Shown: positions 27,752 to 44,888 of the stretch, in pieces
How positions within the stretch are numbered: position 1 is the first letter of the stretch
Layout: each line of letters begins with the position of its first letter
From: Candidatus Latescibacterota bacterium
GTDB taxonomy: Bacteria; Latescibacterota; UBA2968; UBA8231
NCBI GenBank assembly: GCA_965200315.1
Contig: OZ241362.1
Location: 5,248,001-5,312,000, forward strand
Length of the DNA stretch: 64,000 nt
Direction of reading: 5' to 3'
The notes under the pieces: model-generated
What the model was told of the DNA's origin: nothing
Seen by the model: only the letters and a program-made list of their open reading frames with translations
The model's database searches: none
Program-made: the position numbers and the translations under genes

Positions 27752-29437
27752 CTATAAGGCCGATTCGGATGCGAGGTTCTCGGGATATATTTCGATGTGC
27801 TCTGCATACTGCTCCCGCAGTTGGTTTAGAAATGCTTCAAAACGCTCCTCAATGCGCTGGCCATTTGCCGATCGCACCATCTTTTTTACGGTTTGCTGAA
27901 CCTCGGGATGGGCAAAAGGTAGCAATCGGGCCGGGCGTTGCTCCAGCGTGCGAAACACGATGTATCCCGGCCAGATTTTTTCGCGCGGCTGGAAGTGTAC
28001 CAAGAAAGGCCCACCGACTTTTTCCACTGGGGTTTTGCGGACGGCCGCCAGCACGGCCGACATGGAGTGCGGGGAGTGGGCGTGTTGTTCGTCTTCCTCG
28101 CGGTGGATGTGGTAAATGTTATAGTGGAACCAAGCGTCGTGAAAGCGAGGATAACCTTGGGCCAAAGTCCACATATCGGCTCCTTGGCGCACTTTTTCGG
28201 CGACGTCGAGTGCATCTGCTTCGTGGCGGAGCAGGATGGCTTCGTAGATGAGCAGATCGGGATCGGTAAACCAAGATAGATGATCCTCGTAATAGGCCCG
28301 CCTAGCCGCTTCGTTGACAAGTGGTGCTTCGGCCTCTAGGCGGCGCAATTCTTCGATCATTAGCACTGTTTGGCGCTTTTCTAGGTAGCGCTTCATCTCG
28401 TCGTCGTCGGCTAGCCCGGCCTGCTGAGCGGCTAGCGGCAACAGTACGGAATCGACTGCCGTGCGTCTGGCGTACCGAGCAATACTCGCGGTATCTACGG
28501 TTACGGGACGCCGCTGGGATGGGGTTGCTACTAACCATTGCAGGTACTGTCCAAGTGTAACCTGCCCCCCTTCATAGAGCATTAGCTGCTTTGCTGACTG
28601 CTCGCCCTCGTTGAACTCGGGTATGCCGTGGGAGGCGGTTTTGCCCAGTTTTACTAGCTGCAACCAAGTTTCTTCGACTAGCTGTAGATTGAACTGTTTT
28701 CTGGTGTTCGTGCGCAACTCCGCCGTGCGCACGGCAAGGCGATCGGCGTAGAGCCGGTCTTTGATCCTCTTTTTTACGGACTCATAGGACAGCGGGCGCT
28801 CGTCCTCCACGCGCACGATGTGGAAGTAGCCCTCTCTGCCTTGGAAAGGCTCAGACAGCTCGCCCAACGGCATGGAAAAGAGCACCTTGCTGACGGGGCC
28901 GATCATCAAGGACTCGTCCCAGTAACCTAGGTCTCCTCCTTTATCAGCGGTCTGTTGGTCCAGAGAAAAACGACGGGCTAGCTCGGCGAAATTTTCACCA
29001 TCTAGGAGCGCTTGGTAGAGCGTTTGCGCTTCTGCCGCTGTTTTTACCATGATATGCCGCCCCCGCACCTCGCGCTTGGTGTGCAGGGCACTGTTTTCGT
29101 AATAGGTCCTGATCTCTGCGTCAGAGACTGTTATACGGCTTTTAACCTCTCTTTCGATGAGGCGTTCTACGGCCCGTTGTCGGCGCACGCGTTCTAAGCC
29201 GGATAGGACCTGAGTGCTTTTATCCAGTTCCCTATTCTTGGCTTCTATGAGCAGCAATTCGCGGTTGATAAGCGTCTCTAGGACATCTTGCTTTGATTTT
29301 TTTTGCTCCTGCGGCAACTTGTCCCAGACCCGTTCCACCTGATCGATCGCGATGATCCGCTCGGCGATCCGCGCTGCTACAGAATGGTTCTCCGCGCATC
29401 CCAAGAGGATGCCGGACAAAAGGACTACCATTATCAC
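27752..29437 (-). CDS. PpiC/PrsA/SurA-like peptidyl-prolyl isomerase lipoprotein
   Basis: Lipobox LLGC; LINRELLLIEA; RHIMVK...FAELARRFSLD...GGDLG...GELSEP...FHIV; second degenerate parvulin domain. Confidence 0.85.
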   Translation of the reverse strand: MIMVVLLSGILLGCAENHSVAARIAERIIAIDQVERVWDKLPQEQKKSKQDVLETLINRELLLIEAKNRELDKSTQVLSGLERVRRQRAVERLIEREVKSRITVSDAEIRTYYENSALHTKREVRGRHIMVKTAAEAQTLYQALLDGENFAELARRFSLDQQTADKGGDLGYWDESLMIGPVSKVLFSMPLGELSEPFQGREGYFHIVRVEDERPLSYESVKKRIKDRLYADRLAVRTAELRTNTRKQFNLQLVEETWLQLVKLGKTASHGIPEFNEGEQSAKQLMLYEGGQVTLGQYLQWLVATPSQRRPVTVDTASIARYARRTAVDSVLLPLAAQQAGLADDDEMKRYLEKRQTVLMIEELRRLEAEAPLVNEAARRAYYEDHLSWFTDPDLLIYEAILLRHEADALDVAEKVRQGADMWTLAQGYPRFHDAWFHYNIYHIHREEDEQHAHSPHSMSAVLAAVRKTPVEKVGGPFLVHFQPREKIWPGYIVFRTLEQRPARLLPFAHPEVQQTVKKMVRSANGQRIEERFEAFLNQLREQYAEHIEIYPENLASESAL

Positions 29438-29518
29438 TATAGCTTCTCCACGGTTCAGGATTGTGCGGGGGAGGATAAGGACGAGGTAGAGGTGCTTGGT
29501 GGGGGCGAAGTTTGCAAT

Positions 29519-29698
29519 TTATTGCACAGGTTCGAGCTCGAGGAGAACCAGCAGCCAAGTACGCGCCCAATAGGCGCTGTTGATATAAGGCGTCTTCGCG
29601 GTGGGCCAGTTCTGCCAGTAGGTCTCGTTGTGGGGGATTCTGTGGTACCACTGGAGTATCGGAATGGAGGGTAGCTCGCGCAGCCAGATTTTTGACAT
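29519..29698 (-). pseudogene. C-terminal remnant of a family-5 ABC transporter substrate-binding protein
   Basis: Manual translation: IWLRELPSIPILQWYHRIPHNETYWQNWPTAKTPYINSAYWARTWLLVLLELEPVQ*. Confidence 0.6.
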
Positions 29699-29718
29699 GC
29701 ACTATGCTATTAAATAGC

Positions 29719-29748
29719 TTGAACGGGCAAAAGGGCGTATGGTATAAC
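29719..29748 (+). promoter_or_regulatory. sigma70 promoter with extended -10, driving the envelope operon
   Basis: TTGAAC, 18-nt spacer, TGgTATAAC; AAAGGAGG RBS before ATG 29835. Confidence 0.55.
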
Positions 29749-29834
29749 CCTTCAAAAAGGAGGTTTTAGTAGTGAACAGAACGAGCATATCTGACCAACA
29801 AAACAGCCCATTTAATCCTAAAAGGAGGCTAACC

Positions 29835-30743
29835 ATGAGAATCTGTGCTGTTTTTGGCGTTTTGCTGTTGGCTACGAGCATGTGCTTTGCGCACAGCAAC
29901 GCCAATGGTTTCGGGTATTTCGCTTTGGAATGGCCCGCGGATGTGACGTACGTCGCCGATGGTGAGGATGGAGATTGGGCGTGGTACGATCCCAATTTCA
30001 TCGTCACTCCCGACGAAATGGGCGAGGTCGTACAGCAGGTGATTCCAGATAAGAGCGATATTGATGTTTCCATCAGGACCGCTTGGACGCAGGCACCCGA
30101 CAACCGCATCTTTGGCTTTGTGCGGGTGACGGACGATTCGCTGCACGCGGCCGAAACAGATCCGGAAAACGGATGGTATGAGGACGACCTCGAAATCATT
30201 ACCGACGGCGACCACAGTGGTGGCCCGTACCGCGATCCGAACCAAGTAAACGCTCAGCAGTGGACCATGCACGTGCAGGTTCCCGGCGGGTATTCGACGC
30301 CCTACGGCAACGGCACGACTTGGCTACGCAAAGACGCCGATCCAGCCAAGCAGTGGGCCACAGCCTATATTGAGGCCGATGTCAGTCTCAGTCCTCCTGG
30401 TGCTACGCACGGATCGACCAATGTCACCTTAGGCTATGAGTTCGCCATGCCGCTGTGGGTCAGCTTGGAAAACGACGAGGCCTCTACCGAACGCGTGGTC
30501 CTGCAACCGGGAATGACCGTTGGTCTCACCTATCAGCTCAACGAGGCCGATACGACACCTGCGGAAGGTGCCGCCCGGACGCATCAGCTTGTCACTGGGG
30601 ATGTCAACGGGGCGCATAGAGATCAGGATTTCGCCTCTGACTTTACCCTACTTACCGTAGATGAGTACACCCGGGGCAGCGATGCTGGCACTGCGGTCGA
30701 AGGCAGTACTTGGGGAAAAATTAAGGCTACTTTCGACGAGTAA
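29835..30743 (+). CDS. Secreted protein with CBM9/DOMON-like fold and C-terminal TAVEGSTWGKIK motif
   Basis: Signal peptide; ADGEDGDW, VRVTDD, WYEDDLEIITDGD, YEFAMP; tail TAVEGSTWGKIKATF. Confidence 0.7.
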   Translation: MRICAVFGVLLLATSMCFAHSNANGFGYFALEWPADVTYVADGEDGDWAWYDPNFIVTPDEMGEVVQQVIPDKSDIDVSIRTAWTQAPDNRIFGFVRVTDDSLHAAETDPENGWYEDDLEIITDGDHSGGPYRDPNQVNAQQWTMHVQVPGGYSTPYGNGTTWLRKDADPAKQWATAYIEADVSLSPPGATHGSTNVTLGYEFAMPLWVSLENDEASTERVVLQPGMTVGLTYQLNEADTTPAEGAARTHQLVTGDVNGAHRDQDFASDFTLLTVDEYTRGSDAGTAVEGSTWGKIKATFDE

Positions 30744-30765
30744 AATTTCTCCATTTTATTTTGCC

Positions 30766-30803
30766 GCGGGGGAGGAGAGGTGTGCATATCTTTCCTCCCC
30801 CGC
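30766..30803 (+). terminator. Strong intergenic stem-loop (mRNA stabiliser or partial terminator)
   Basis: GCGGGGGAGGAGAGGTG-TGCA-TATCTTTCCTCCCCCGC; 17-bp stem including G:U pairs. Confidence 0.7.
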
Positions 30804-30841
30804 TTGCGCGTTTTGTAGGATACTGGGGGGAGCGCTTTGCC

Positions 30842-31561
30842 ATGAGTTCATATTTGGGTGCCTTGGTGTTGCTGGTCGGTTGTGGTCGCTACTTCCCAGG
30901 ACCGATCGAACCCGCACCCGAAAATAGCCAGCAAGCCTATGCCTCGGTTGAGGACGACGGGACCATTATCGCGGTTTTTAACCGTCTCGAAATTTCCCTG
31001 CGTCCCATGACGGACGAAGAACTGAACCGTCAATTCGCCGACTACTCTGTGGCGGGTGCCAATTCCAAAAATCCATATACCTTTGGCAACTGGAAGCCGC
31101 TGGGCGATACCTATACGCCACCCAAGTACACTGTCTTTTCGGTTCAGGTAAAAAACTACGAGTATCCCAAGGTGCATCTGGACCCCACCCGCATAACCCT
31201 CGTCTCTCAACAGGCTGGCCGCGAGTATGATCCTCTCAACAGAAGAGATATCCTCGAATTCTATGCTTCTATGATTCTCGGATATGCGGGTAATGCCTAC
31301 AGCGTCTTCCAAGAGCGCAGGGAGATTCTGACCCGCACTATGTATCCAGACGAAGACGTTTTCAGCGGCCAGGAAGTCGAGGGGTATGTGGTGTTTCCCG
31401 CCTTACCTCGCGATATCAATGAGTTTATCGTTCACCTCAGCGACGTGGCGATTCGCTTCGACTTCAGGCAGCAACCTGTCGAGACCATAGATCTGGCCTA
31501 TCGCTTCCAGCGCGAGGTGTTCAGGGGGTATCAGCCTCCGGCAGATTGGGCGCAGGAATGA
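30842..31561 (+). CDS. Hypothetical lipoprotein
   Basis: MSSYLGALVLLVGC lipobox; beta-sandwich-like FSVQVKNY...GQEVEGYVVFP; stop overlaps the next ATG. Confidence 0.75.
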   Translation: MSSYLGALVLLVGCGRYFPGPIEPAPENSQQAYASVEDDGTIIAVFNRLEISLRPMTDEELNRQFADYSVAGANSKNPYTFGNWKPLGDTYTPPKYTVFSVQVKNYEYPKVHLDPTRITLVSQQAGREYDPLNRRDILEFYASMILGYAGNAYSVFQERREILTRTMYPDEDVFSGQEVEGYVVFPALPRDINEFIVHLSDVAIRFDFRQQPVETIDLAYRFQREVFRGYQPPADWAQE

Positions 31562-33462
31562 GACTGCTGGCGAGCAGGCTCACTTTGTGCGGAATATGTT
31601 ATCTGAGCGCGCCGCTTGAAGCACAGGTCGAAAGCTATAAAGTTGGTGAGGATGGGTTTTCTTGGGATTCTCAAGCCGCGGTTGCCGGGGGAGTAGATCT
31701 GCAAGACCCGGCTCTGATCCGGCCCATCGGCTTGGTCGCAACCGACAATATCCTCCGCTCGCTCAACTGGAGCGACTCGCCTACCTTGGACTTTGTCGCC
31801 GAAGGCCGTGCTCACATCTGGGACAACGCCGCGATCGAAGGCTCGGCCGCTGCCTTGGTCGATGGCGATGAGCAGACTTCCTCTGGCGACCGCTTTAAAG
31901 GGCTAGGCACCGATCAGACTGGACGCATCTTTTTTTTGGACTTGGGGGTTTCTTTTCCGGTCAATCGCCTGATCTACTTCCCTAGTCCATCCTTTCCCGA
32001 CGACTTCCCTAGGGCCTTTGAACTTGCCGTAAGCGATGGCCGCGACTATACCCAGCAAGGAGAGCCGCGCTATCAGGTCTTAAAACGCGTTGACTTGCAG
32101 CCCGAGCCGAGGACGATAATCGACTTTCCAGTGCAGCTAATCCGCTTTATCAGACTGCGCATCCTGTCGCCCAATCCGTTTGAAATAGCGGAAATCCAAG
32201 CCTTTGGCACAGGGTTCGTGCCCAAGGGCACTTACAATTCCAAGCTCATTGAATTGCCCACGGCAGCAATTCTCGGCACGCTCTCCATCAAAGCCACCAA
32301 GTTGCGTCGCCAAGAGGACGGCGTCCTGCTGTCGACAGCGGCTGCCGCTGCGTCTATGGACCTGACCCTGCGCAACGGCACTGACGAGACCCCTCTGGTC
32401 CATTTTGAAATCGTCGATCGCGAAACGGGTTCGGAGCAGCCCACGACCGCAGACGCCTATGCCAAGCTGGCGGAAGACTTTCGCGGTTCCATCCTCGACG
32501 ATGCCGAAAACTGGACTTGGAAGAATCCGATCCGCATTGATTCGACCGGGACTTTTACCTATCCCCTCGAACTGCCCGGACCGAGGAAGTATTTTGATTT
32601 CCAGCTCTTTTTTCGCGGCACTTCTACCGATCTCGTTCAGATAGAGAGCTTAGCCATTAGCTACTCTCTGCCGCTGGCCGACCGCGCCGTAGGCGAGGTG
32701 GCTGTTTTAGCAGACCCATTTCCCCCAAGTGGTATAGTCGCGGTGCCAGCCGGTCGCGATACCCTTTTTACCTATGACATCCGGGCGGAATTTGGTAGCG
32801 CCGCGCAGGTTGGGTTCGATGGTTTGCACATTGCGACCCAAACCGAACCGACGTTGCTCAAATTCGAGTTGGGGGAGCCACTCGTCGAGGTAGTGCCCGA
32901 CAGCGTCCATGCGGATGCACAGGGGCTGATGCTGTACTTCCCATCGAATCGGGTCACGCCGAGTAACAACCAGCCGCTGCGCGTTACCTTTCGCACGGCT
33001 ATTCTGGTATATGCCACTGATTTGGTGAGCCACCTAATCGACTCTGGGGGGCGTTTGCCCCAGCCGGTCGCTGCCGGCGATGCTAGTCCGAATGTTGGCA
33101 CCAACACCAATCGGGTCTTTTTCTCCAACGCCGCAGGGGGTGGGATTTTATCCGCGATGCAGGTCGTGCCGGCGGTGTGTACGCCCAATGGGGATGGCGT
33201 CAATGAAGAGAGTCGCATTGTTTTCCAAGTCTTGCGTCTGGTGCAGGAGGTCGATTTTTCCATTGGGATCTACGATTTGGCTGGCCGCCGGGTGCGTCAG
33301 CTATTTTTCGACGCCTTGTCCGCCGGGGCCTATGAGCACACTTGGGATGGCCGCGATGCGACCGGTGAGTTGGTGCCTCCGGGGGCTTATATCGCACGCA
33401 TTGCGGCTGAGACCGAATCAGGGGAAGAGGTATTGGCTAGGACGCTCAGTGTGGTCTATTAA
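31558..33462 (+). CDS. Secreted discoidin-like + FlgD/T9SS-type CTD protein (paralog family, subtype A)
   Basis: Signal peptide; LDLG, EIAEIQAFG, NGTDETP, GFDGL, TPNGDGVNE, WDGRDATGELVPPGAY. Confidence 0.8.
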   Translation: MRLLASRLTLCGICYLSAPLEAQVESYKVGEDGFSWDSQAAVAGGVDLQDPALIRPIGLVATDNILRSLNWSDSPTLDFVAEGRAHIWDNAAIEGSAAALVDGDEQTSSGDRFKGLGTDQTGRIFFLDLGVSFPVNRLIYFPSPSFPDDFPRAFELAVSDGRDYTQQGEPRYQVLKRVDLQPEPRTIIDFPVQLIRFIRLRILSPNPFEIAEIQAFGTGFVPKGTYNSKLIELPTAAILGTLSIKATKLRRQEDGVLLSTAAAAASMDLTLRNGTDETPLVHFEIVDRETGSEQPTTADAYAKLAEDFRGSILDDAENWTWKNPIRIDSTGTFTYPLELPGPRKYFDFQLFFRGTSTDLVQIESLAISYSLPLADRAVGEVAVLADPFPPSGIVAVPAGRDTLFTYDIRAEFGSAAQVGFDGLHIATQTEPTLLKFELGEPLVEVVPDSVHADAQGLMLYFPSNRVTPSNNQPLRVTFRTAILVYATDLVSHLIDSGGRLPQPVAAGDASPNVGTNTNRVFFSNAAGGGILSAMQVVPAVCTPNGDGVNEESRIVFQVLRLVQEVDFSIGIYDLAGRRVRQLFFDALSAGAYEHTWDGRDATGELVPPGAYIARIAAETESGEEVLARTLSVVY

Positions 33463-33507
33463 ATGCAACTCCCCTCACCGGCTAATGTGCCCTGTGTCCG
33501 CCGATGA

Positions 33508-33693
33508 ATATATAGTAACACCTTTCCAAAGGAGCCGCGTTACGCGAGGGATTCTTTGACGTGTGGACTATTGGTCAATCTGACCAACGGCTTAGGTGGA
33601 TTCTCTCCTGCTTGGCAACCGGTATCCTCTTCTGAGACGGCTAAGAGCGTCGAAGCCCAGTCGTGGGGACGGATCAAATCGCCATCCCATTAA
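33508..33693 (+). pseudogene. Remnant of a TolB/PD40-like secreted protein ending in a WGRIK tail
   Basis: Start-less frame ...VNLTNGLGGFSPAWQPVSSSETAKSVEAQSWGRIKSPSH*. Confidence 0.5.
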
Positions 33694-33705
33694 TCGCGTC
33701 TCGTC

Positions 33706-33740
33706 CGTAGGGGCGGTGCAGAGCGCAAGCTGTCCCTACG
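33706..33740. repeat. GTAG-type REP-like palindrome
   Basis: CGTAGGGGCGGT-GCAGAGCGCAA-GCTGTCCCTACG; 12-bp stem. Confidence 0.6.
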
Positions 33741-33987
33741 CACCCTTCTGCAAATCCCACTTTATCGTCCGCAAGCGCAAAATCCAAGAGTAATCGCTAT
33801 CCAAATGCGCGATGCCCGACACTTCGAGCTGTAGCGCAATCGCAACACGGCTGTTTATCCCACACTACACCGCGTCGCCGAACAAAGAGCCATCGTTCAG
33901 AGTGCGGGATGATTTAAGTCGATTGGTCTGCATTTTGCATAGGACATATAGCCGATTATCTTTAACCCGATACCAAAGGATACTCAC

Positions 33988-34497
33988 ATGTCCACACCAC
34001 AACCCTCTGCCGAGCTGACTACCCGCGATGTTTTGCAGCAGATTGACCATCGCCTAAGTCTCATCGAGACGGATGTGCGCGAAAACAGTACCAAACTCGA
34101 GTCTAAGATCGACGATCTTGAAGCCAAGACCGAGTCTAAGATTGACGATCTTAAGGCTGAAATCGACGATCTTAAGGTCAAACTCGAGTCTAAGATTGAC
34201 AATCTTGAAGCCAAGACCGAGTCTAAGATTGACGATCTTGAAGCCAAGACCGAGTCTAAAATTGACGATCTTAAGGTCAAACTCGAGTCTAAGATTGACA
34301 ATCTTGAAGCCAAGACCGAGTCTAAGATTGACAATCTTGAAGCCAAAGTTGAAGGCAAACTCGACGGTCTCGATAACAAAATTGAAATCGCAACACGCGA
34401 AATACGCCGCGACTTCAACGGCAAATTTAACTTGGTTATCGGCTTGGTTATCACCACTTGGCTGTCGATGATGGGTACACTGTTCTTCAAATTGTAA
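33988..34497 (+). CDS. Tail-anchored coiled-coil repeat protein (DUF1640/CCDC90/Bdr-like architecture)
   Basis: 11-aa repeats LEAKTESKIDD / LKVKLESKIDN; C-terminal TM LVIGLVITTWLSMMGTLFF. Confidence 0.8.
   Translation: MSTPQPSAELTTRDVLQQIDHRLSLIETDVRENSTKLESKIDDLEAKTESKIDDLKAEIDDLKVKLESKIDNLEAKTESKIDDLEAKTESKIDDLKVKLESKIDNLEAKTESKIDNLEAKVEGKLDGLDNKIEIATREIRRDFNGKFNLVIGLVITTWLSMMGTLFFKL
34093..34350 (+). repeat. 33-bp coding tandem repeat (about 7 units plus one 21-bp insert)
   Basis: GAGTCTAAGATTGAC(G/A)ATCTT-(GAAGCCAAGACC or AAGGTCAAACTC) units. Confidence 0.9.
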
Positions 34498-34503
34498 ATG
34501 TGC

Positions 34504-36060
34504 TCACGTGCCCTTCTGCACTAACCCCACCTTATCGCTCCACAAGCCCAAAATCCGTGCCGACTCGCGCAACAAATGCACGTATAGGGAACCAGCACGG
34601 CGTCTCTTTTCGAGCCGTTCCCGCTGATTGAGCACCATGTTGAACTTGCCGCGGGCTTGGGTGACGGCCCGTTGGCGGTTGGCGACAGCGACGGTGAGAA
34701 CGCGCTTTTCGAGGGCCTCTTCGGAGTCGGCGTTGAGCGCCCGCAGCGACCAGATCGAGGTGTCGCCCGCAAGGCACTGGTCGGTGTAAGAAAAGACGCA
34801 ATGGCCCATGATGCGGCCCTCGGCTTGGAGCTGCTGCGAGGTGCAGAGCTCGTAGATGGTCCAGACGAGGTTGCACTTGAGCGGCGCGTCGTATTCTTCG
34901 AGACGGAAATCAGCCAAACCCGTAGCCGCCCACGTCTTGAGCGGCACGTCTTCTGCTCCCGACAACGTCTCGTGCCATTGATCCACTTGGTGGAGTAGCT
35001 TGGCGGCGCTGCGGCCTTTCATGCAGAAGTTGGGCTGCGGCGGCGGTCCTGTGATTTGGGTGCTGTCGGGCTGTGTGATCTGCTGTGGCAGGTACTTCTG
35101 GTGACGGATGTAGTCGTAGAGCGGCAGGAAGTAGCTGCGGTGCAGCATGGGGTAGTTGTTGACGTAGAAGTGGACGACCGAAATCCAGAAGTCCTCGTTT
35201 TCCAATGAGTCGCCCAGCGGCGTGGCGGCTACGTACCAAGAGACGTGGGAATCGCCGCCGAGTGCCTCCACTTGGGCCATGCGCAACGCCTGAAGCAGGG
35301 TATGGTGTGGATGGTGCATCTGCATGAAGATATGCGCCATGCGCTTGGTGACCTTCATCGGCACACCTGCGGTACGCAGGTTTTGACCGCCGGCTACGTG
35401 CTTGAACCACTCCTGCTGTTGATAGGCTGCCTCCGTGTGCCCTTGGAGCCAAGCGGTGTCCATGGGCGCGGGGACTGTGTAGTGAGCCAGCAGGTGCCGC
35501 GCCAGCGATTGGAATTGCGGCCGCTCTTTGGCCGTGTCGGGCCGCCACTCCTCCACTGGACGCAGCCAGTCGCGGTGGTGTCGGGCAAGCTGCCCCAAGG
35601 CGGCGATATAGGTGTTGGCATGGTTGGCACCGAGGCGCTTGAGCACGGGCATGGGCCGCAACAAGTGGCCGTATTTTTCGACGTGCAGCACTAACCCCCC
35701 GAGAGCCCTTTGGGCGCTTGGATCGCTGGCCAGCGCACTGCGTTCGACGCGCAGCCGCGAGAGCAGGTCGTTGAGCTTTTCGTCTTCTAGCTCGCCGTTG
35801 AACAGCCGGTTGATCAGAGCGGCGCGGCGCGGGTCGTGCTCTTTGCTAACGGCTGGATCTATTGAGGGCTGCAACGAGGCAAAAAGCGCCCGCTCTGCGG
35901 CTCGCTCTTGTGGCGTCTTGTCCAGCGCTGTGCTCAGGCCGTGCCGGTAGCACCAGAGCTTGTAGGCGGCGATTGTGCCGACGCCGAGTGCGGCAAAGTG
36001 CGCGGCGAGGGCTTCGCCAACTTGGTTGGGGAACAGCAGGGTGTGTGTGGCGTTGGTCAT
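34504..36060 (-). CDS. PcfJ domain-containing protein
   Basis: LARHLLAHY.VP..MD..W, GQNLR, DYI, FCMKGRS, V..WH, EL.T..QL.AEGRIMGHCV.SY...C..G..SIWSL, QARGKFN. Confidence 0.82.
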   Translation of the reverse strand: MTNATHTLLFPNQVGEALAAHFAALGVGTIAAYKLWCYRHGLSTALDKTPQERAAERALFASLQPSIDPAVSKEHDPRRAALINRLFNGELEDEKLNDLLSRLRVERSALASDPSAQRALGGLVLHVEKYGHLLRPMPVLKRLGANHANTYIAALGQLARHHRDWLRPVEEWRPDTAKERPQFQSLARHLLAHYTVPAPMDTAWLQGHTEAAYQQQEWFKHVAGGQNLRTAGVPMKVTKRMAHIFMQMHHPHHTLLQALRMAQVEALGGDSHVSWYVAATPLGDSLENEDFWISVVHFYVNNYPMLHRSYFLPLYDYIRHQKYLPQQITQPDSTQITGPPPQPNFCMKGRSAAKLLHQVDQWHETLSGAEDVPLKTWAATGLADFRLEEYDAPLKCNLVWTIYELCTSQQLQAEGRIMGHCVFSYTDQCLAGDTSIWSLRALNADSEEALEKRVLTVAVANRQRAVTQARGKFNMVLNQRERLEKRRRAGSLYVHLLRESARILGLWSDKVGLVQKGT

Positions 36061-36297
36061 GTCGTATTATCGCTATCTGTGTCGGCTATGAGGCAAATTT
36101 CAATTTTAGGGCAGAAGATCAACAATGCCAAGCGGTTCCTCTCGACCGCGGAGGGTTTATAACGCCGTTGTTCTGCTGTATATTCTGTCGCCTACATCTC
36201 AACATATAAGCCACTCACTTGCTGACTCACTTCGACCAAAGGGCTAGACAAGCAACCCTATCTAACATACGGGGATTGCAACCCAGAGTTTGGACGA

Positions 36298-38304
36298 ATG
36301 AAAATTACTTTTATTGCCGTTGCGGTGGTGTTGTTGAGCGGCATTGAGTCGCTACGGGCCGAGATCCACACCTTGGTCCTCGGACCGGGCGGGGTCCCAT
36401 GGAATGAACTAGGTGAGCGCGTCGTCGGCTTGGAGACAGTTCCGGTCAGTGGTGCCCTACAGCCCCTCGAACTCTTGCCGCAGCAGAATATCATCGCAGG
36501 CCCCCGCACGGACAGCGGTGAATACACCACGATTTTGGGCAGCACTTGGCAGCTAGGGAAGCAACCCAAAAGGGACGATTTTGAACTGGGGGTGACGCCT
36601 CGTTTCTGGACCAGTATTCTGCCTCTCTACCACACGGCACCCTTTCAGGTCATCGACGGAGATCGCGCTACGGTGACCAAGCTGCGCTGGTCTGTAGTGG
36701 GTGGGGGTCGCCGGGAAGATATATACACGTTTGACTTTGCGTTCCCCATTCCCATAAACCGCGTAGTACTCTATCCGCCAGCTACCGGACTGGACGAAGG
36801 CGGAGGCTTGAGAAAGCAGCGCTTCCCCCGGGCCTATGAAATATCGGGTGCCAGAGAACCGGTAGATTTTCTCCTGCTCAGCGAAGAAGACAGGCCTCAC
36901 ACCCTAGAGCAGGTACTGTCCCGCACCTTTGTCAACTCTGACCGCGTTATAGATGTCCGCTTCCCCGCGCAGACTCTGCGTTTTTTGCGCATTGCCTTCA
37001 ATCTGATCGCACAGGTGTACATGCTGAGCGAGATTGAGGTGTACGGCGAGGGTTTTGCGCCGGAGACTAGTTATCGCACAGCGGTTATCGACTTGGGGGC
37101 GCCGGTGAATTTCGGGCGCATTTTTTGGGAGTTTGAAAAGTTCCGCAAAACCTCGAGCGCACTCATTCCGGCCCCGGAGGCGCCGATCCGCTTGGTGTTG
37201 GAAACGCGCACTGGCCGGGACGATACCCCGAAGGCGTACTACATCATCAGCGACATAGGTACGGAACGGCAAGTAGAGGAAGCGGTTTACAATAAGGCGC
37301 TGGAGAAATCGCCCTTTGTCCAGGGCGATCGTCCCGGTGATAAATCGTCGATCAAGCTCGACGAGCAAAACTGGAGTTTCTGGTCAACGCCCTATGACCT
37401 TTCTGGCCAGTTACTCCGCTCGCCGGATGCACGGCGTTATATGCAGCTTCAGTTCAATATGGTAGCCGAGGATTTTCACACTTTCGGTCGTGTGAAATCC
37501 GTGGCGATTGAGTACTCGCCGCTCCTTGTGGAATCCCTCGTTGGCGAGGTAGGTTTGGCTGGGAGAGGAGACCGGGTGCCCGAAGCGCCGGCAGGTCAGG
37601 AGACAACATTTATCTACGCCGTCTCGGCTAGTTTTGGCACCGACGGTCAGCTAGGCTTTGATGCGATTAAACTCAATACTGTAGCTGAGGCTGAGTTCGC
37701 CAAGCTGGAGATTGGACAGCCGCTAGCGGCTGTAGTCCCCGACAGCGTCCGTTTCGCCGATGGGGTTTTAGCCGTGTATTTTCCCTCGCATAAAGTAGTG
37801 CGCGCCGATGGCGAGGAGCATCTGCGGCTGACCTTTCGCACGTCCTTGTTGGATTTTACTACCCACTTCCTCGGCGAGGTGTTGGAATTGACGGGAGAAA
37901 ACCTGCCCCAGTCGATTGAGCCTGGCGACGCGAGTGCGGAGCTCCATAGCGACGACGTCCGAGTCTTCGCCACGGGGACCTCCATAGAAGCGCTGTCCGA
38001 GATTGTGTTGGATTCGCCGTTCCTGACGCCCAACGGCGACCGCATCAACGACGAACTCGACATCGCGTTCACGTTACTCGGCGCGGAAGATACCGCCACT
38101 GAGATCGGAGTCTATACTCTTACAGGCCAGCGGGTCAGGGCCTTGGTACGCGGGAAATTCAACAAGGGTTTTTACACTAATCAATGGGATGGGCGCGACG
38201 ACCAAGGGACGCTGGTCCCTCCCGGCATCTACCTTTTGCACATAAAGGTAGATGCCGACAAGGAAACATCAGAACAATTTCGTTCGGTGTCGGTAGCATA
38301 TTGA
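36298..38304 (+). CDS. Secreted discoidin-like + FlgD/T9SS-type CTD protein (subtype A)
   Basis: Signal peptide; EIEVYGEGF, IDLGAPVNFGRI, TRTGRDDTP, NWSFWSTPY, SPDARRY, TPNGDRINDE, WDGRDDQGTLVPPGIY. Confidence 0.85.
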   Translation: MKITFIAVAVVLLSGIESLRAEIHTLVLGPGGVPWNELGERVVGLETVPVSGALQPLELLPQQNIIAGPRTDSGEYTTILGSTWQLGKQPKRDDFELGVTPRFWTSILPLYHTAPFQVIDGDRATVTKLRWSVVGGGRREDIYTFDFAFPIPINRVVLYPPATGLDEGGGLRKQRFPRAYEISGAREPVDFLLLSEEDRPHTLEQVLSRTFVNSDRVIDVRFPAQTLRFLRIAFNLIAQVYMLSEIEVYGEGFAPETSYRTAVIDLGAPVNFGRIFWEFEKFRKTSSALIPAPEAPIRLVLETRTGRDDTPKAYYIISDIGTERQVEEAVYNKALEKSPFVQGDRPGDKSSIKLDEQNWSFWSTPYDLSGQLLRSPDARRYMQLQFNMVAEDFHTFGRVKSVAIEYSPLLVESLVGEVGLAGRGDRVPEAPAGQETTFIYAVSASFGTDGQLGFDAIKLNTVAEAEFAKLEIGQPLAAVVPDSVRFADGVLAVYFPSHKVVRADGEEHLRLTFRTSLLDFTTHFLGEVLELTGENLPQSIEPGDASAELHSDDVRVFATGTSIEALSEIVLDSPFLTPNGDRINDELDIAFTLLGAEDTATEIGVYTLTGQRVRALVRGKFNKGFYTNQWDGRDDQGTLVPPGIYLLHIKVDADKETSEQFRSVSVAY

Positions 38305-38319
38305 GCATCCGAGGATAGC

Positions 38320-40647
38320 ATGTTGCAACGGGCATATTTGCTGACGCTGTTGGCGCTTTTACCCAGCGGGGAAACAGATGCCGGGACGCTGCTTATAAAC
38401 AGCCAAGACCAGTGGCGGCAATGGACTTTTCCACAAGGGGTGCTATCGCTAGCGGAAGATGGCAGCGTGGGACTGAGACATTTCCGACGCGATATAGATG
38501 CCGTCGCCGACGCGGCCGAATTCTTTCACCCAAATGCCAAGGGGAAAGAGGTACAGGGAGGAATCCGAGGTGCGGGCACCCACATCGACCAAGCGGCCCA
38601 TATTCTCGATGGCGCGGCTACTACTTGGTGGCAACCCAGCCAAGCGGCTCCGCTCGACGATTGGTGGGTCGAGATCGATTTAGGCCGCCTCGTCCAGGCT
38701 AAAAAGCTCCGGCTGACCTTTCCCGATATCGAGGGTGCGCGGCCGCTGCGCGAGTTTTCCGTTTTCGTCGCCGAGGGAACGCCTTTTCTCACCGGCCAAG
38801 ACGTTTTCCGCTACGACCGGGTGGGCGGCACGACCCAGCCCAGCCGGGAGACGGTGATAGAGTACGACCTTGGGACGCCGGAGTTGGGCAACGCTACTGG
38901 CGAGTATTTGGCGACTAGCGATACCCTAGAGTATATGTCCATTCAGTACGTGCGCGTCGTTGCTCACGCCAAGAGTCTGGATGCGGCACTGGCTGCGGTC
39001 GATGTCGAGGCCATAGGCGACAACATTGCCCCGGGGACTATCGAGCGGGGAGGCGTCATTCGGACTGGTCGCGACCCGCGCACTATCGCCAATATCATGG
39101 ATGGAACCGCAGCCACGTGGTGGTCCCTGACCTCGCGGGGCGACCTCGATTGGCGCGATAAAGGCGATTGGTTTGAGTGGGATCTGGGAGCCACCTTCTG
39201 GATTGATCAACTAACTATGGTGGAGCCGCCGCCGGGATTTGCCACACTGGGGGTGAATTCGTACCGGAATCAGTCCAGTTTTGAACTATTGACCTCGGAC
39301 GGCACGCCGATTCCCACCCAAGGGGGAGAGCGGCTTCAGAGTCCCGTTGATTACCAGTTGCTCAGCTTCGTCGATAACGAAACGCTGAGTAGCGCGGGCA
39401 TGAGAAACCGCAATTTTGATTTCCGCTTTCCCGCTCGCAAGGTGCGCTATCTGTTCTATCACCACGAATCTCCGGTCAATAGGTCCACCGTTTTCCATTT
39501 ATTCGAGATTTTCCTCTACGGCGCCGGTCATCCGGCCGAGGTGGTGATGACCGCGAATTTTATCGATCTGGAAGGAGCCAAAAGCCTGCGCCGGATGCGC
39601 TGGGAGGCGGAGACAACGGCCGAGACGCGCATAGAAATTCGTACGCGCACCGGTAATACGCTGGACGAAGAGATATTCTATTACGACAAAAATGGTCGCG
39701 AAGTTCCCAAAGGACGTTGGGACAAACTGCCGGCCAGCCAGAAATTGCCCGAAGTAAAAGTGGCGAAAGCCGGTGCCGACTGGAGTGCGTGGAGCTCGGC
39801 CTACAAGGAGTCAGGGGAAGTCTTCCGCTCGCCCACGCCGAGGAAGTTCGTCCAAATGGAGGTGCGTCTGCAGACCGAAGACCCCCAAGTGGCACCGACG
39901 CTGCGCGAGATTGCCCTCGATTTCGACGATCCGCTCATCGGCGGCGGGGTTTTCGCCCGCGTTTCTCCACGCGAAGTGGTCCTCGATTCGCTGACGGTTT
40001 TTACCTTCCGCCTTGGGGGTCGCACTAGACCGACTGATCGGGGTTTCAACCGCCTCGTGTTCGATTTGCCGAACTCCCTCGAAGGTGACGTGCAACTGCG
40101 GATAGGGGATCGCCGCGTTGAACCCTTGCAGGTGGAGTCCAGCGGCGATTCGGTCGTGATCGACTTACCCGAACAGGTCCGCGGGGACAGCATTGAAGTC
40201 AACTTGCCGTTGCGCCTGTTGGCCGATGCGGTTGCTTTCGACGCTTGGGTAAGCTCTACGACGCAGCCCGATGTTCGCCAAGGGATTCAGCCAGAAGCCC
40301 TAGGAGTTTTGACGGTGTTCGTACCCGAGATTGCCCAAGAGGAGCACCTCATCCGCGCATTGGAGGTGTCCTCGGCGATGGTCACACCCAACGGCGACGG
40401 CATCAACGACGGGCTGAAGCTACGCCTGTTAGTGGTAAAAACCACCGCCCAACCCGAGGTCGCCATTTACGATTTGAGTGGCTCATTAGTCGTTAGCACC
40501 GAACAGGTGGATCAAGCGCACTATGTGTGGAATGGTCGGGATGAGAGCGGTCTATTGTTGCCCCCCGGTATCTACATTCTGGACGCCAAGGTAGCGACCG
40601 ACACTGCAACGGAGCGGCGACAGCGTATCATCCATCTGGTCTATTAG
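38320..40647 (+). CDS. Secreted discoidin-like + FlgD/T9SS-type CTD protein (subtype B)
   Basis: Signal peptide; QWRQWTFP, WWVEIDLGR, RTRTGN, YDKNG, WSAWS, SPTPRKF, TPNGDGIND, WNGRDESG.LLPPGIY. Confidence 0.85.
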   Translation: MLQRAYLLTLLALLPSGETDAGTLLINSQDQWRQWTFPQGVLSLAEDGSVGLRHFRRDIDAVADAAEFFHPNAKGKEVQGGIRGAGTHIDQAAHILDGAATTWWQPSQAAPLDDWWVEIDLGRLVQAKKLRLTFPDIEGARPLREFSVFVAEGTPFLTGQDVFRYDRVGGTTQPSRETVIEYDLGTPELGNATGEYLATSDTLEYMSIQYVRVVAHAKSLDAALAAVDVEAIGDNIAPGTIERGGVIRTGRDPRTIANIMDGTAATWWSLTSRGDLDWRDKGDWFEWDLGATFWIDQLTMVEPPPGFATLGVNSYRNQSSFELLTSDGTPIPTQGGERLQSPVDYQLLSFVDNETLSSAGMRNRNFDFRFPARKVRYLFYHHESPVNRSTVFHLFEIFLYGAGHPAEVVMTANFIDLEGAKSLRRMRWEAETTAETRIEIRTRTGNTLDEEIFYYDKNGREVPKGRWDKLPASQKLPEVKVAKAGADWSAWSSAYKESGEVFRSPTPRKFVQMEVRLQTEDPQVAPTLREIALDFDDPLIGGGVFARVSPREVVLDSLTVFTFRLGGRTRPTDRGFNRLVFDLPNSLEGDVQLRIGDRRVEPLQVESSGDSVVIDLPEQVRGDSIEVNLPLRLLADAVAFDAWVSSTTQPDVRQGIQPEALGVLTVFVPEIAQEEHLIRALEVSSAMVTPNGDGINDGLKLRLLVVKTTAQPEVAIYDLSGSLVVSTEQVDQAHYVWNGRDESGLLLPPGIYILDAKVATDTATERRQRIIHLVY

Positions 40648-40700
40648 TCGGGCCGGGCGTCGCCTATGCAAAGCTGCTATCGATACGGGAAACCAGCGCG

Positions 40701-43337
40701 ATGAATAAAGCCATTTGGTCTTTTGTCTTTCTCGCCCTCTTGCCACTAAGACTCAAGGCCGACTTGCAGAGCGGGTTTTTCAATCCGTACAGAGCGACGG
40801 GAACACCTGTCGATTTTGAGTCGCTGAGTCCGGTGCTGCGAAAATGGTACGTACCTCAGACGCTGCTTTATCTTTATGGCTGGAAGACCTACGAGTACAC
40901 CAACTACGCCCGGGACAACTACCAGCGCTACGTCAATCTCTTCTTGGAAGGGGATCGCTATTACGACCTGTACGGTAACTATATTACCCGGGGTTGGCGC
41001 ATCTACGACTGGCGTCAGGAACACCCGCTCGATTTTGGCAGCAGCATCTTCAAAAATCCCCGCTTCAATAGTTGGTTCAACCGCGTCCTGATATCGTCGG
41101 CTTCCAAAGGACAATTCTACACCGCACTGACCGTCGGCGAACAGCTACGCACCACGCTTACGCCGCTGACCTTCTCGAAGCCGCTCTTCGACGGTATCCA
41201 GTGGGATATGCAGTCCGACAAATACGCCTTGACCCTTATTGCTTCGCGCATTGACAATCCGGCCGTTCAGCGTCTCGACAGCGAAATCTCCGAAGCGAGA
41301 GAGACGGTCTTCACCAATTTGTACGGCTTGCGCGGAGTTGCCCAAATCGGCGATTTCGCCACGTTGGGATTGACGTACGTCAATGCCAACCACGGCAACA
41401 GCCGCTTGAGCGTCGAGGAGAATTCCCTCAAGGGCGTCTTGGGGGGGCGCTTGAACGCGGAAAACGTCCGCCGCATCGTCGTCCGCCTCAGCGACGATTC
41501 GCCCGAAGACAACACCGGCGGTGCGCTGCTGTTCCGCGCGCGGATCTTCATCGACGACGTCGAGCACCCAGAAATAAAACCTTCGATTGACGGGGGGACG
41601 CGGCGTCAAGGCTTGCTCGAAGCCAACGGCGGCGATGTACTGACGCTCAGTTACGACATCGAACGCGATTTCGTCCCGGGCGTAAAGGACCAGATCGGCG
41701 ATTTCAAAGAGGCCCGCAAGATCGATATTGAGCTGGTGGTGGCCAATGATTTTCGCATAGAGATAACCTCTAATATGCAGACTAATTTCACCGGCGAGAC
41801 GGTCTTCTTGCCGGTCAAGCGGAGCAACGGCAACATCAGCGATGGTTCCAATCAACAGGTCGTCCGCTTCCAGTACGGCCTGCCGACAGCCAATGAAATC
41901 ATGGGTTTTACGTTTGAGGTTTCCGAGCTGGCCGGATTTAATCTCCGCTCCGAATTCAACGTCAATCGCCACCACCGCAAGTTTCCCAACCAGAACATCG
42001 TCAAGAGGCAGGCGCTAGCGTCTGATCGCGCCGAGGCTTTTTACGTTACGGCCTCGCGCTTGACCTATCCGTGGTTCGCCTATGGAGAGGCCTTCTCTAT
42101 GGATCCGAACTACGGGACCTCTATGGTCATTCCCGACCAGCGCGGTTTTATCGACTACGAGGATGAGCTCAACTTCACCTATGAATTTGTCGAGGACAAC
42201 GACGACCAAGATCGCTTTCCCGACTGGCGGCGGCGCGTTACCGGGGGCGGTTTTGTGCCGGGGCAGCAGACGACCCGCGCCGCGGATGTCGAGGTGTTTC
42301 CCGGCCTCGACGAGAACAACGACTTGGTCAATGACTTCAATCAGAACGACAATTTGCAGCCCGATTACGTCGAACCCTTTCTGCGCTACAATGTCGATCC
42401 GCCCGAATTCCTCTTCGGCACCGACATGAACAACAACACCGTCATAGACCGCCTCGAAAACGATACCGAACCCGATTATCCCTACAAGCGCGACCACCGT
42501 GGCTACAATTTCTACGTGGGCGCTGAAATGCAGCCCGGTTCTAAGGTCATGGTCGGGCATCTACGCGAGTGGTTGATCGGTAGTGCCCGGCGAAACCAGA
42601 CGAGCTATGGGCTTTTTACTTGGCAGGAAGACCTGCCCTTGCGCGGGTTTAAGTTTCGCTTCATGGAATTTTTGCGCTTTGCCCGCGACGATATTCCCGA
42701 TGCACTGATCCAGTGGGTACAGTCTCCCTTTTCGGCAGGAGGTCTGCAGGATGTGCCGGACCGCTTGATAGCCCAGCATACGATGATCAACACGTCGTAC
42801 CTCGACTTTGCCATTCATCGCCTGCGGCCGCTGAATGTGTCTGGTAAAGTCAAGTGGGACCATTATTTTCAGCGCGGAGATCAGGTGCGAGAAAATCGCG
42901 ACGAGAGTTTCTTGGGTGCCATCCTGAGAGCGGAGTACTTCTACGAGCCGTTCGCGGGCGTCACCATTTCGCCCAAATGGAAGCAACAGTACGCCCGCCG
43001 AGTCCCGACGGATCCCTTGGTGCTGCGGCGCAATGAGCTATCGGAGATTTTTTCTTTTATCGGGACATACGATCTCATCCCCGGCCAGCTCGTCTCGGAG
43101 TCGGGGATCGAATGGGAGGTCTTTAGGAACCTACAGCAAGAGCCCGATCCGCTGCCGCCGGCCTTTGTCGAGGATTTCACGACCCTGACCTTGGCCACTC
43201 AGTTCACCAACAGCTCCGAGTATCAGGGCTACGCACTGTCCACCAAGATCGGTGTGCGCTGGCAACGCCGGGCCTTGCAACAAGGCGATGAGACCAATTT
43301 CCTCACGTTTGTAACCATCTTCGCCGGATTGCGCTAA
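40701..43337 (+). CDS. Secreted 878-aa putative outer-membrane beta-barrel protein with Asp/Asn-rich Ca-binding-like repeats
   Basis: Signal peptide; amphipathic beta-strand pattern; DNDDQDRFPD, DENNDLVNDFNQNDNLQPDY, DMNNNTVIDR; ends FLTFVTIFAGLR. Confidence 0.7.
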   Translation: MNKAIWSFVFLALLPLRLKADLQSGFFNPYRATGTPVDFESLSPVLRKWYVPQTLLYLYGWKTYEYTNYARDNYQRYVNLFLEGDRYYDLYGNYITRGWRIYDWRQEHPLDFGSSIFKNPRFNSWFNRVLISSASKGQFYTALTVGEQLRTTLTPLTFSKPLFDGIQWDMQSDKYALTLIASRIDNPAVQRLDSEISEARETVFTNLYGLRGVAQIGDFATLGLTYVNANHGNSRLSVEENSLKGVLGGRLNAENVRRIVVRLSDDSPEDNTGGALLFRARIFIDDVEHPEIKPSIDGGTRRQGLLEANGGDVLTLSYDIERDFVPGVKDQIGDFKEARKIDIELVVANDFRIEITSNMQTNFTGETVFLPVKRSNGNISDGSNQQVVRFQYGLPTANEIMGFTFEVSELAGFNLRSEFNVNRHHRKFPNQNIVKRQALASDRAEAFYVTASRLTYPWFAYGEAFSMDPNYGTSMVIPDQRGFIDYEDELNFTYEFVEDNDDQDRFPDWRRRVTGGGFVPGQQTTRAADVEVFPGLDENNDLVNDFNQNDNLQPDYVEPFLRYNVDPPEFLFGTDMNNNTVIDRLENDTEPDYPYKRDHRGYNFYVGAEMQPGSKVMVGHLREWLIGSARRNQTSYGLFTWQEDLPLRGFKFRFMEFLRFARDDIPDALIQWVQSPFSAGGLQDVPDRLIAQHTMINTSYLDFAIHRLRPLNVSGKVKWDHYFQRGDQVRENRDESFLGAILRAEYFYEPFAGVTISPKWKQQYARRVPTDPLVLRRNELSEIFSFIGTYDLIPGQLVSESGIEWEVFRNLQQEPDPLPPAFVEDFTTLTLATQFTNSSEYQGYALSTKIGVRWQRRALQQGDETNFLTFVTIFAGLR

Positions 43338-43344
43338 CAGAGCG

Positions 43345-44748
43345 ATGGGTAGTACCCGTCCATCTGTTCTCTTGGCGCTGGCGCTGGCCACGCTGGTCGC
43401 CTGCGAGCGTCCCCCCACGACCAAGCCCGACTACCAAATGTGGCTGGAGCGGCATCCGCAGGATAGCGAAGCCCATTGGCAACTGGCCGATCTGCTCTTG
43501 CAAGAGCGCGACTTGCAAGGGGCCGAGCATCACTACCGCACGGCCCTGAGCATCAAGCCGATGACTGTGGACGCTTGGGTCGGGCTGGGAAATATCTCCT
43601 GCAAACAGGGCCTATACGAGCAGGCCGAGCGCCACTTCCGCAACGCCCTCTCGCTGGACGATGAGCACGTGGGTGCCTTGTGCAGCTTGGCCAGTTTGTC
43701 CCTAGAACAAGAGGAATACGCCCATGGCCGCGATTTGTATCGGCAGGCGCTGGCTCTCGATCCAGACAATGCCGGGGCGTTCTACAATCTCGCTTTGGCT
43801 TATATCAAGCTCAAGGCTTACTACGAGGCGATTACAGCCCTGCGGCAGGCCACTCGCATTGATACGGGGTACAGTTTGGCATTTTACGCCCTCGGCCAGA
43901 TCTACGCCGAGCGTCTCGGCCAGTACCAAGAAGGTATCGCGGCGTTTAGGCGGGCAGTGGCACTGAGAGCAGACTGGCCTAGAGCGCAGATAGGTCTAGG
44001 CCACGCCCTGCTGAAGGCCGGCCAAGTAGATGCGGCCACAGCGGCTTTTGGCGAGGCCCTCGCGCTCGATCCGAGTGCGGCCCAAGCCCATGTAGGCTTG
44101 GGGTTGGCCGAGGAGCGACGGGGTGCCGAGACGCTCGCCGAGGCGCATTACCTGCGCGCCATCGCCTTGGATCCGGTGCGGGCGAGGACCTATTTTAAGC
44201 TCGGAACGCTCTACGTCAGACAGGGAAGAAAGGAGGAAGCCCGACAATACTTGGGCCGCTTTGAAGGGCTGGCACCTTATACCGACGAGTTGGCGCAACT
44301 CAGAGACCGACTGCGGCGAGAGCCGGATAACGCACTGGCCCATTACGCTTTGGCCGGGATTTACGCCAAACTGAATATGCCCTCCCTCGCAATCAGTGCC
44401 CTGAGAAGCTGTCTCGCCGTGCGGCCGGATTATGCGCCTGCCTACAACAATCTCGGCAACGCATATTTGCGCTTGGGAGATACCGGGGAAGCCATCGCGA
44501 TGTACGAAGTCGCCGTCCGCATTGACACGGCGTACGCGCTGGCCTACAACAATTTGGGGAGTGCCCAGCTACTCAAGGGTCAATCCCATCAGGCGCTGGC
44601 GTGCTACCAACGCGCACTGCGGATTCGCCCGGATTATGCCGATGCGTATTACGGGCTTGCTATGGCCTATAGAGAACAGGGGCGGCACGCCGAGGCCGGA
44701 GCGGCCATGGCCCGGTATGAACAAATTGTCGCGGCTGATGAGCCGTAA
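43345..44748 (+). CDS. Tetratricopeptide repeat lipoprotein
   Basis: Lipobox LVAC; many TPR units (AYNNLG, AFYNLA, ALALDP). Confidence 0.9.
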   Translation: MGSTRPSVLLALALATLVACERPPTTKPDYQMWLERHPQDSEAHWQLADLLLQERDLQGAEHHYRTALSIKPMTVDAWVGLGNISCKQGLYEQAERHFRNALSLDDEHVGALCSLASLSLEQEEYAHGRDLYRQALALDPDNAGAFYNLALAYIKLKAYYEAITALRQATRIDTGYSLAFYALGQIYAERLGQYQEGIAAFRRAVALRADWPRAQIGLGHALLKAGQVDAATAAFGEALALDPSAAQAHVGLGLAEERRGAETLAEAHYLRAIALDPVRARTYFKLGTLYVRQGRKEEARQYLGRFEGLAPYTDELAQLRDRLRREPDNALAHYALAGIYAKLNMPSLAISALRSCLAVRPDYAPAYNNLGNAYLRLGDTGEAIAMYEVAVRIDTAYALAYNNLGSAQLLKGQSHQALACYQRALRIRPDYADAYYGLAMAYREQGRHAEAGAAMARYEQIVAADEP

Positions 44749-44878: not shown

Positions 44879-44888
44879 CTCTAAAAGT

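Follow-up and report, generated by a model that had tools for sequence, protein, structure and literature searches.

A many-copy Latescibacterota gene cassette around a predicted outer-membrane beta-barrel of no described family, with a possible role in capture and uptake

A 64-kb window of the genome of Candidatus Latescibacterota bacterium (GCA_965200315.1, contig OZ241362.1; coordinates below are those of this window) holds a cassette of cell-envelope genes built around an 878-aa protein, which modelling predicts to be an outer-membrane beta-barrel of no described family. The window locus is one of 27 such clusters in its genome, and we tentatively read the cassette as the outer parts of a capture-and-uptake machine that would be energised by a proton motor and would function like SusCD with unrelated parts. 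A first-pass annotation made from the sequence had described the same gene set, and all of its named open reading frames (ORFs) were confirmed in place; it had left out the multi-copy context, an ExbB/ExbD/TonB-like motor and the DUF6785 membrane proteins. The locus and its flank read as follows.

27752..29437, minus strand: parvulin/SurA-like peptidyl-prolyl isomerase (PPIase) lipoprotein, 561 aa (PF13145, E 7e-17)
29692..29720, plus strand: candidate sigma-70 promoter, -35 perfect, -10 weak
29835..30743, plus strand: CBM9/DOMON-like secreted protein, 302 aa, with a TAVExxSWGxIK tail; ATG behind a strong ribosome site
30766..30803, plus strand: 17-bp RNA hairpin, no U-tail, from folding against shuffles
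30842..31561, plus strand: lipoprotein of no known family, 239 aa, from a paralog profile search
31546..33462, plus strand: cargo alpha, 638 aa, with an F5/8-type (CBM32-like) match and a FlgD/CHU_C type-B-like C-terminal domain (CTD)
33598..33693, plus strand: remnant of a WGxIK-tailed gene, no start seen, part of an insert
33988..34497, plus strand: coiled-coil repeat protein with a hydrophobic helix at its C-terminus, in the insert, outside the cassette
34504..36060, minus strand: PcfJ-like protein, in the insert, outside the cassette
36298..38304, plus strand: cargo beta, 668 aa, CTD type as in alpha, 32% identity to alpha
38320..40647, plus strand: cargo gamma, 775 aa, from its predicted fold and structural alignment
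40701..43337, plus strand: predicted outer-membrane beta-barrel of a new family, 878 aa, from its predicted fold
43345..44748, plus strand: tetratricopeptide repeat (TPR) lipoprotein, 467 aa, from TPR repeats in Pfam
44802..44915, plus strand: tRNA-Val(TAC), then a bidirectional terminator, end of the locus
46569..48530, minus strand: additional beta-type cargo gene, beyond the coordinates of the first-pass annotation
51034..54393, plus strand: additional gamma-type cargo gene with a long N-terminal extension, likewise beyond them

Signal peptides and lipoboxes (LLGC, LVGC, LVAC) were spotted by eye in the translations. Pfam matched FlgD_ig/CHU_C in all three cargo paralogs and weakly F5/8 type C in two, with no match for the WGxIK protein, the lipoprotein or the 878-aa protein.

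That the 878-aa protein folds as a barrel had been proposed in the first-pass annotation and is borne out by AlphaFold2, Foldseek and VIA-align. The AlphaFold2 model, built with 150 homologues, reached a predicted local distance difference test (pLDDT) score of 87.6 and a predicted TM-score of 0.85. It has at least 23 long, mostly amphipathic strands within residues 129-876, the last of which forms the end of the protein, preceded by an N-terminal region (21-128) that is partly low-confidence in the model and is a candidate plug. A beta-sandwich (234-393) and a conserved acidic DxDxD/N loop (468-598) are inserted between strands, and strand parity in the model would put both on the long-loop side. 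Covariation among 329 sequences (effective number 181), which draws on much the same sequences as the model, recovered most consecutive strand pairs, with the seam and the N-terminal strands left out. Sequence relatives were found in neither Pfam, NCBIfam nor PDB. Foldseek returned MtrB, SlpA, LptD, ushers and TonB-dependent transporters (TBDTs), all at TM-scores of 0.27 or less, and VIA-align returned many generic barrels at Z 13-14 with a high root-mean-square deviation (rmsd) and no standout. The nearest named cluster in the Atlas was DUF6029 at 0.89, which is a lead only; an Atlas search with the inserted domain of a barrel homologue gave no match, and no similarity was found between the inserted domain and the CBM32 domains of gamma.

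Profiles made from the window proteins were used to search the bacterium's own genome, giving 42 barrel ORFs (a count that includes fragments) in the 27 clusters, and cassette genes span 423 kb, or 7.9% of the genome. Cargo at a strict threshold is present in 23 of the 27 clusters, the PPIase in 24, the WGxIK/CBM9-like protein in 24, the TPR lipoprotein in 23 and the lipoprotein in 12. Every one of the 26 strong PPIase paralogs and of the 14 strong lipoprotein paralogs lies inside a barrel cluster; the lipoprotein profile had no match in PDB. The PPIase is a probable folding helper and the TPR lipoprotein, as judged from its repeats, probably an assembly factor. The 304 other neighbours include CRTAC1-like ASPIC/FG-GAP proteins at 17 clusters and DUF6785/DUF6784 membrane proteins at 15.

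The same set recurs in public genomes. We counted the 51 of 80 close loci that have full 10-kb flanks, which come from the closest relatives, many of one genus: cargo is found at all 51, the WGxIK protein at 49, the lipoprotein at 48, the TPR protein at 42, the PPIase at 40, CRTAC1-like proteins at 31 and DUF6785 at 24. Co-occurrence of the barrel with the paralogs and the lipoprotein, on which the first-pass annotation had staked its reading, stands in these loci, but for the lipoprotein it is confined to the 12 clusters mentioned in the own genome. By their source labels the barrel homologues belong to Latescibacterota or Gemmatimonadota. Across 19 clusters, barrel distances track those of the WGxIK protein (rho 0.79), the PPIase (0.60) and gamma (0.58). 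Among 168 genomes of the phylum, 107 have the barrel, 105 gamma-type cargo (E 1e-30) and 104 the DUF4159 arm described below (E 1e-60), the latter two limited to barrel-positive genomes. In families f2-f4 of the same class, 56 genomes gave no match to any of the three, and SprA is retained in all 24 genomes tested from these families. Six listed barrel matches in G068 (contig C2) carry an internal stop, which suggests ongoing decay of some copies. No description of the cassette was found in the literature, nor any paper on DUF6785/DUF6784, and DUF4159 does not occur among the papers listed for it, most subscription papers and supplements lying beyond the reach of this search; the accessible portions of two phylum papers (PMC7081726, PMC4454575), in term searches, mention porins and TonB systems in generic terms only.

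A link to a motor emerged from 20 regions taken from eight genomes belonging to other families. In three of these families (genomes G071, G091 and G068), loci run in the order cargo, a PorV/PorP-like gene, one to three barrels, a TPR protein of 1100 aa, ExbB, ExbD, ExbD and the lipoprotein gene, which closes these loci too; the PorV-family, ExbB and ExbD scores here are under the curated cut-offs. A DUF4159 gene sits inside the motor-linked run in G071, and in G086 a trio cassette has a PorV-like gene at its end. In the window's genome, three of four ExbB matches, four of nine DUF4159 matches and all four giant TPR genes map to barrel clusters or next to them. Each DUF4159 protein combines a membrane helix with a long linker rich in Lys, Arg and Pro, and carries DUF4159 where TonB_C would be. 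TonB has a Ser/His motif in its transmembrane segment, and a His lies in the helix of five of the six aligned DUF4159 proteins. DUF6785 genes number 18 of 39 in 8-kb cluster flanks, against 3.1 expected (p 0.001); about half of the 39 matches in the genome lie away from barrel clusters. In G068 there are also loci with barrel, DUF4159, CBM9-like and DUF6785 genes and no cargo, which fit uptake better than cargo anchoring.

The same motor-linked loci bring to mind the Agl-Glt/Nfs-type machines of Myxococcus, which serve motility or surface-polymer handling and are generally described as having AglR/Q/S, GltG, a large TPR protein and three barrels. An ExbB-like and two ExbD-like proteins, a TonB-like arm, a giant TPR, up to three barrels and a lipoprotein parallel that layout, so the cassette could belong to a motor machine that moves or remodels surface adhesins; the silence of searches for GldM and GldN in the genome, where control searches were equally silent, would agree with this. 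We consider it improbable, as 27 diverged copies with DUF6785 neighbours suit a repertoire of specificities better than one motility apparatus, the cargo is tailed for type IX secretion (T9SS), and NCBIfam scans, the basis of this comparison, gave the cassette core proteins generic TPR matches only and no Glt family, with no family-level match for barrels or cargo.

The three cargo proteins appear to be a fixed set of surface binding proteins. Gamma was modelled at a pLDDT of 91.1; in the model two CBM32/discoidin domains (about 57-403) interrupt a split jelly-roll (21-56 plus 407-541), followed by a further all-beta domain (about 544-668) and the CTD (674-775). The CBM32 domains have a galactose-binding-like fold (best structural match Z 16.1, rmsd 1.9), and the CTD aligns with the PorU CTD (6za2) at Z 11.7 and rmsd 2.6 over 93 residues. 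The rest of alpha is probably laid out as in gamma, judging from homology. No catalytic domain was found in the cargo. The split jelly-roll is similar to a phage tail-hub insertion domain (Z 12.0, rmsd 2.3; the domain is treated in the accessible part of 10.1101/2025.06.11.659172, and that of 10.1101/2024.12.09.627619 served for identifying one fold match). A viral fold library gave generic Ig/discoidin matches only, and descent of the jelly-roll from the phage domain was considered and rejected in favour of a common fold. In a tree of 102 C-terminal regions, most clusters contribute one member to each of three lineages, with mirrored sub-clades, next to some orphan genes; in 39 of the 51 public loci each of alpha, beta and gamma occurs exactly once. 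Three tandem gamma-beta pairs stand without a barrel at G000:C1:4940613-4953884, and more orphan pairs at 0.82, 3.28, 3.92 and 4.59 Mb; such pairs are possibly exchangeable subunits.

Export of the cargo by the T9SS is plausible from its sequence features. The proteins combine a signal peptide with an Ig-like CTD, and the genome has translocon genes: SprA (621 bits) and PorU (615 bits, next to a PorV-family gene), with seven PorV-family matches over the cut-off in all, so that the search for core genes suggested in the first-pass annotation gave sprA and the porV family. These genes lie at G000:C1:3732008-3738400 and 1598472-1603339, without detectable GldM or GldN; PF11751 was likewise not found in the genome, the control searches for these being equally silent, and the ExbB/ExbD loci are candidate energisers of the T9SS. 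SprA is present in 61 of 61 relatives and the barrel in 37 of 61, hence the barrel is not a core T9SS part. The tails had been assigned to type B. TIGR04131 scores of alpha, beta and gamma (13.1, 15.0 and 25.6 bits) stay under the cut-off of 35, and PF13585 (cut-off 27) gave 26.0, 32.5 and 35.7 bits, enough for beta and gamma; what holds is that the PNxDG tail is confined to the cargo family, occurring in 93 of 103 cargo ORFs and in none of the 34 others among 137 CTD-bearing ORFs of the genome, 31 of these 34 carrying PNPF.

In Bacteroidota, according to the accessible text of two papers (PMC12618676, PMC9143113), type B cargo depends on a cognate PorP/SprF shuttle; the shuttle gene mostly comes right after the cargo gene, and orphan cargo proteins use a common one. 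No porP/sprF-like gene follows the cargo at the window locus, and the suggestion that the barrel takes the place of PorP/SprF is not supported: neither the barrel nor any of 48 homologues matches PF11751, TIGR03519 or NF033709 (PorP/SprF/PorV), and in the divergent loci the gene after the cargo is a PorV/PorP-like one, distinct from the barrel. Since shuttle gene and barrel coexist there, the barrel is not a shuttle by descent. The cassette thus resembles type B systems in its PNxDG-type CTDs, in the presence of SprA, PorU and the PorV family and in the shuttle-like gene right after cargo in motor-linked loci, and differs in the sub-cut-off TIGR04131 scores, three cargo subtypes per locus, the missing shuttle gene at most loci, a barrel unrelated to PorP/SprF and the failure to find GldM/GldN.

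One alternative is a surface-display platform, in which a plugged barrel would be a scaffold holding the secreted trio as a variable adhesin or coat, with the motor serving assembly. About 100 type-B-like cargo genes face at most 11 PorV/PorP-like genes and, as shuttles of type B are believed to act stoichiometrically (PMC12618676, in the part accessible), another anchor would be needed. In 38 of 51 loci gamma is the gene immediately before the barrel, like type B cargo before its shuttle, and 22 cargo genes, several as gamma-beta pairs, lie outside barrel clusters. A known barrel also offers a precedent, as Deinococcus SlpA is proposed to be a scaffold (accessible part of PMC9388160). SlpA and the cassette barrel are both large, with acidic, probably metal-binding insertions, and SlpA occupies Foldseek ranks 2-4; PF21620 (SlpA_C) is matched by 7 of 48 distant barrel homologues over profile positions 232-308 (best E 2e-7), all under the cut-off (best 30 of 35 bits), and a six-frame search gave nine matches in four of five genomes, eight of them inside mapped barrel genes. 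There may be a remote kinship across about four strands. However, the TM-score is 0.27 at most, SlpA has fewer strands, and the cassette barrel, for which neither PF21620 at cut-off nor an SLH domain or coiled-coil stalk was found, is linked to motor and cargo genes. The cargo-free G068 loci, the enrichment of DUF6785 near clusters and the own shuttle gene of motor-linked loci also speak against display, which we regard as unlikely though a serious contender.

The first gene of the plus-strand run encodes the WGxIK protein (alternative start 29772). Its likeness to CBM9 survives at the level of the family profile, which matches T. maritima CBM9-2 (1i82, E 6.5e-6), but not in the window's own protein, which is outside the 10 of 24 family members with PF06452. 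A TAVExxS/TWGxIK-like tail ends 41 ORFs genome-wide; as many of these have no relation to the CBM9-like family, the tail would appear to be a general short sorting signal, for which no family model was found. The hairpin noted behind this gene is real by folding (z -4.2, with none of 200 shuffles equally stable), and a downstream fold of -20 kcal/mol or stronger follows 25 of 31 WGxIK-family genes in the genome, where such folds come after 1 of 26 PPIase genes, 12 of 100 cargo genes, 10 of 42 barrel genes and 5 of 14 lipoprotein genes; the hairpin probably stabilises or truncates the mRNA of the first gene. As for the promoter, TTGACA-N17-TAGCTT is present at 29692-29720, but a promoter scanner, which called 6 sites against 8.1 expected, made no call at 29.7 kb. 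RNA contigs from two studies begin near 29737-29738, and a run of unrecorded kind with flat cover continues through, so this is a weak hint; RNA runs of three studies cover parts of the locus, and such runs may contain DNA.

A hairpin-marked first gene and three related accessory genes recall chaperone-usher pili (FimD/PapC), where the barrel would be an assembly pore, the CBM9-like WGxIK protein a polymerised major subunit and alpha, beta and gamma the tip. The size of the barrel is near that of 24-strand ushers (FimD Z 13.3, 324 aligned), the trio is fixed, and the split jelly-roll resembles oligomerising phage tail-hub domains. All the same this is very improbable, given that no usher family match and no usher N-terminal domain, plug or CTD1/2 was found in the barrel, that its insertions would lie on the long-loop side, that the trio has T9SS tails in a genome with SprA, and that the WGxIK tail is also found on unrelated proteins; the cassette further lacks pilin folds and a chaperone of that family.

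In the capture-and-uptake reading, every part would be exported by Sec, and the PPIase and TPR lipoprotein would aid BAM in folding the barrel. The trio would cross the outer membrane by way of the one SprA translocon, using a PorV/PorP-like shuttle that the few motor-linked loci provide in trans, and would dock on the extracellular beta-sandwich and calcium-binding-type loop of the barrel, much as SusD and surface glycan-binding proteins do on SusC. An ExbB-ExbD-ExbD motor and a TonB-like DUF4159 protein, shared between cassettes and with their genes at three or four loci, might pull the N-terminal region of the barrel open, and the CBM9-like protein and a DUF6785 inner-membrane protein would hand the solute inward. 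The 27 diverged copies would cover a range of specificities, with carbohydrates or glycoconjugates as the probable substrates, the window locus being one specificity set that borrows translocon, shuttle and motor in trans. The accessible part of PMC11658791 describes the SusCD/TBDT mechanism with its TonB box and plug. Like SusC/SusD and TBDTs, the cassette has multi-copy loci, an outer-membrane barrel with an N-terminal region ahead of it, putative binding proteins at the surface that lack a catalytic domain, and what may be a common ExbB/ExbD motor with a TonB-like arm. In contrast, its barrel has no TBDT match (neither PF00593 nor PF07715, also among the 48 homologues), at least 23 strands and two large insertions, its binding proteins are T9SS-tailed rather than lipoproteins, and its arm ends in DUF4159 instead of TonB_C; the genome has separate TBDTs, with 13 PF00593 matches located elsewhere. 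No SusD match was found in the locus. The display and Agl-Glt-type alternatives can overlap with the capture-and-uptake reading. Taken further, the parts may form a second, non-homologous class of importer energised by the proton-motive force, with a new barrel, ExbB-ExbD acting through a DUF4159-tipped arm, a T9SS-delivered alpha/beta/gamma lectin heterotrimer as cap (perhaps on a barrel trimer, and with exchangeable subunits), DUF6785 permeases and dozens of specificities per genome; this fuller version is possible, with less confidence than the general reading.

An uptake analogue independent of SusCD had been suggested in the first-pass annotation, and it is the reading we favour, at somewhat less than an even chance, from folds, gene linkage, gene stoichiometry and co-occurrence; docking, energisation, substrate and transport are inferred. 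Several points weigh against it. Motor, shuttle and DUF6785 genes are all missing from the locus in the window, a DUF4159 gene is present in only 3 of 80 close loci and a PorV-like gene in none of the 80, hence the shuttle and motor steps rest on action in trans. The transmembrane His is found in only one of four cluster-linked DUF4159 copies of the own genome. The barrel, whose N-terminal region is low-confidence, showed neither a TonB box nor a plug nor a match to a TBDT family. DUF6785 is a putative transporter from its hydrophobic sequence, and its profile had no match in PDB. Cluster flanks are not enriched in sulfatase, PhyH, enolase or GFO genes, unlike what the catabolic enzymes of a SusCD polysaccharide utilisation locus would lead one to expect, and only marginally in ABC sugar-uptake genes (p 0.06-0.08); no glycoside hydrolase family recurs among the 304 neighbours, as far as BLAST clustering with annotation of some families goes. 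Co-divergence is expected anyway from duplication of whole cassettes, and since related genomes are not independent, the phyletic profile amounts to few events.

A 2.8-kb insert (33598-36060), overlooked in the first-pass annotation, splits alpha from beta with the WGxIK remnant, the coiled-coil gene and the PcfJ-like gene. Over 14 regions compared, it is kept at most but not all close orthologous loci, and is missing at the orthologous locus of G009 and at more distant loci. The coiled-coil repeat gene varies in length between relatives, and the PcfJ-like gene has five relatives in the genome. Beyond the tRNA-Val(TAC) and terminator, gene content differs between relatives, so the tRNA-Val site may be an integration site. 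Elsewhere in the window, a sulfatase gene (44966-46538) is split into ORFs of 364 and 154 aa and whole in close relatives (ORFs of 520-620 aa); RNA contigs differ by one base near 46000, within this split gene. A M6-peptidase/beta-helix protein with a FlgD-type CTD (8879-11638) is likely another T9SS cargo, and a probable defence island (57352-63247) holds HsdM and HsdS of a type I restriction-modification system, separated by a zeta-toxin-like AAA gene and followed by HipA-like and HIRAN genes.

What is known of active uptake across the outer membrane concerns essentially TonB-dependent transporters of 22 strands. If the capture-and-uptake reading is true, these barrels would be a second family, and a new class, linked to ExbB/ExbD and to a TonB-like arm with a different tip, DUF4159 fusions and DUF6785 would gain roles, and the range of type-B-like T9SS cargo would come to include Latescibacterota, where no GldM/GldN is recognisable. 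Being discrete and expressible, the parts make the idea testable. Should the barrel be an adhesin scaffold only, it would still be an undescribed surface machine; as an importer, it would account for about 8% of the genome in this sponge- and ocean-associated lineage.

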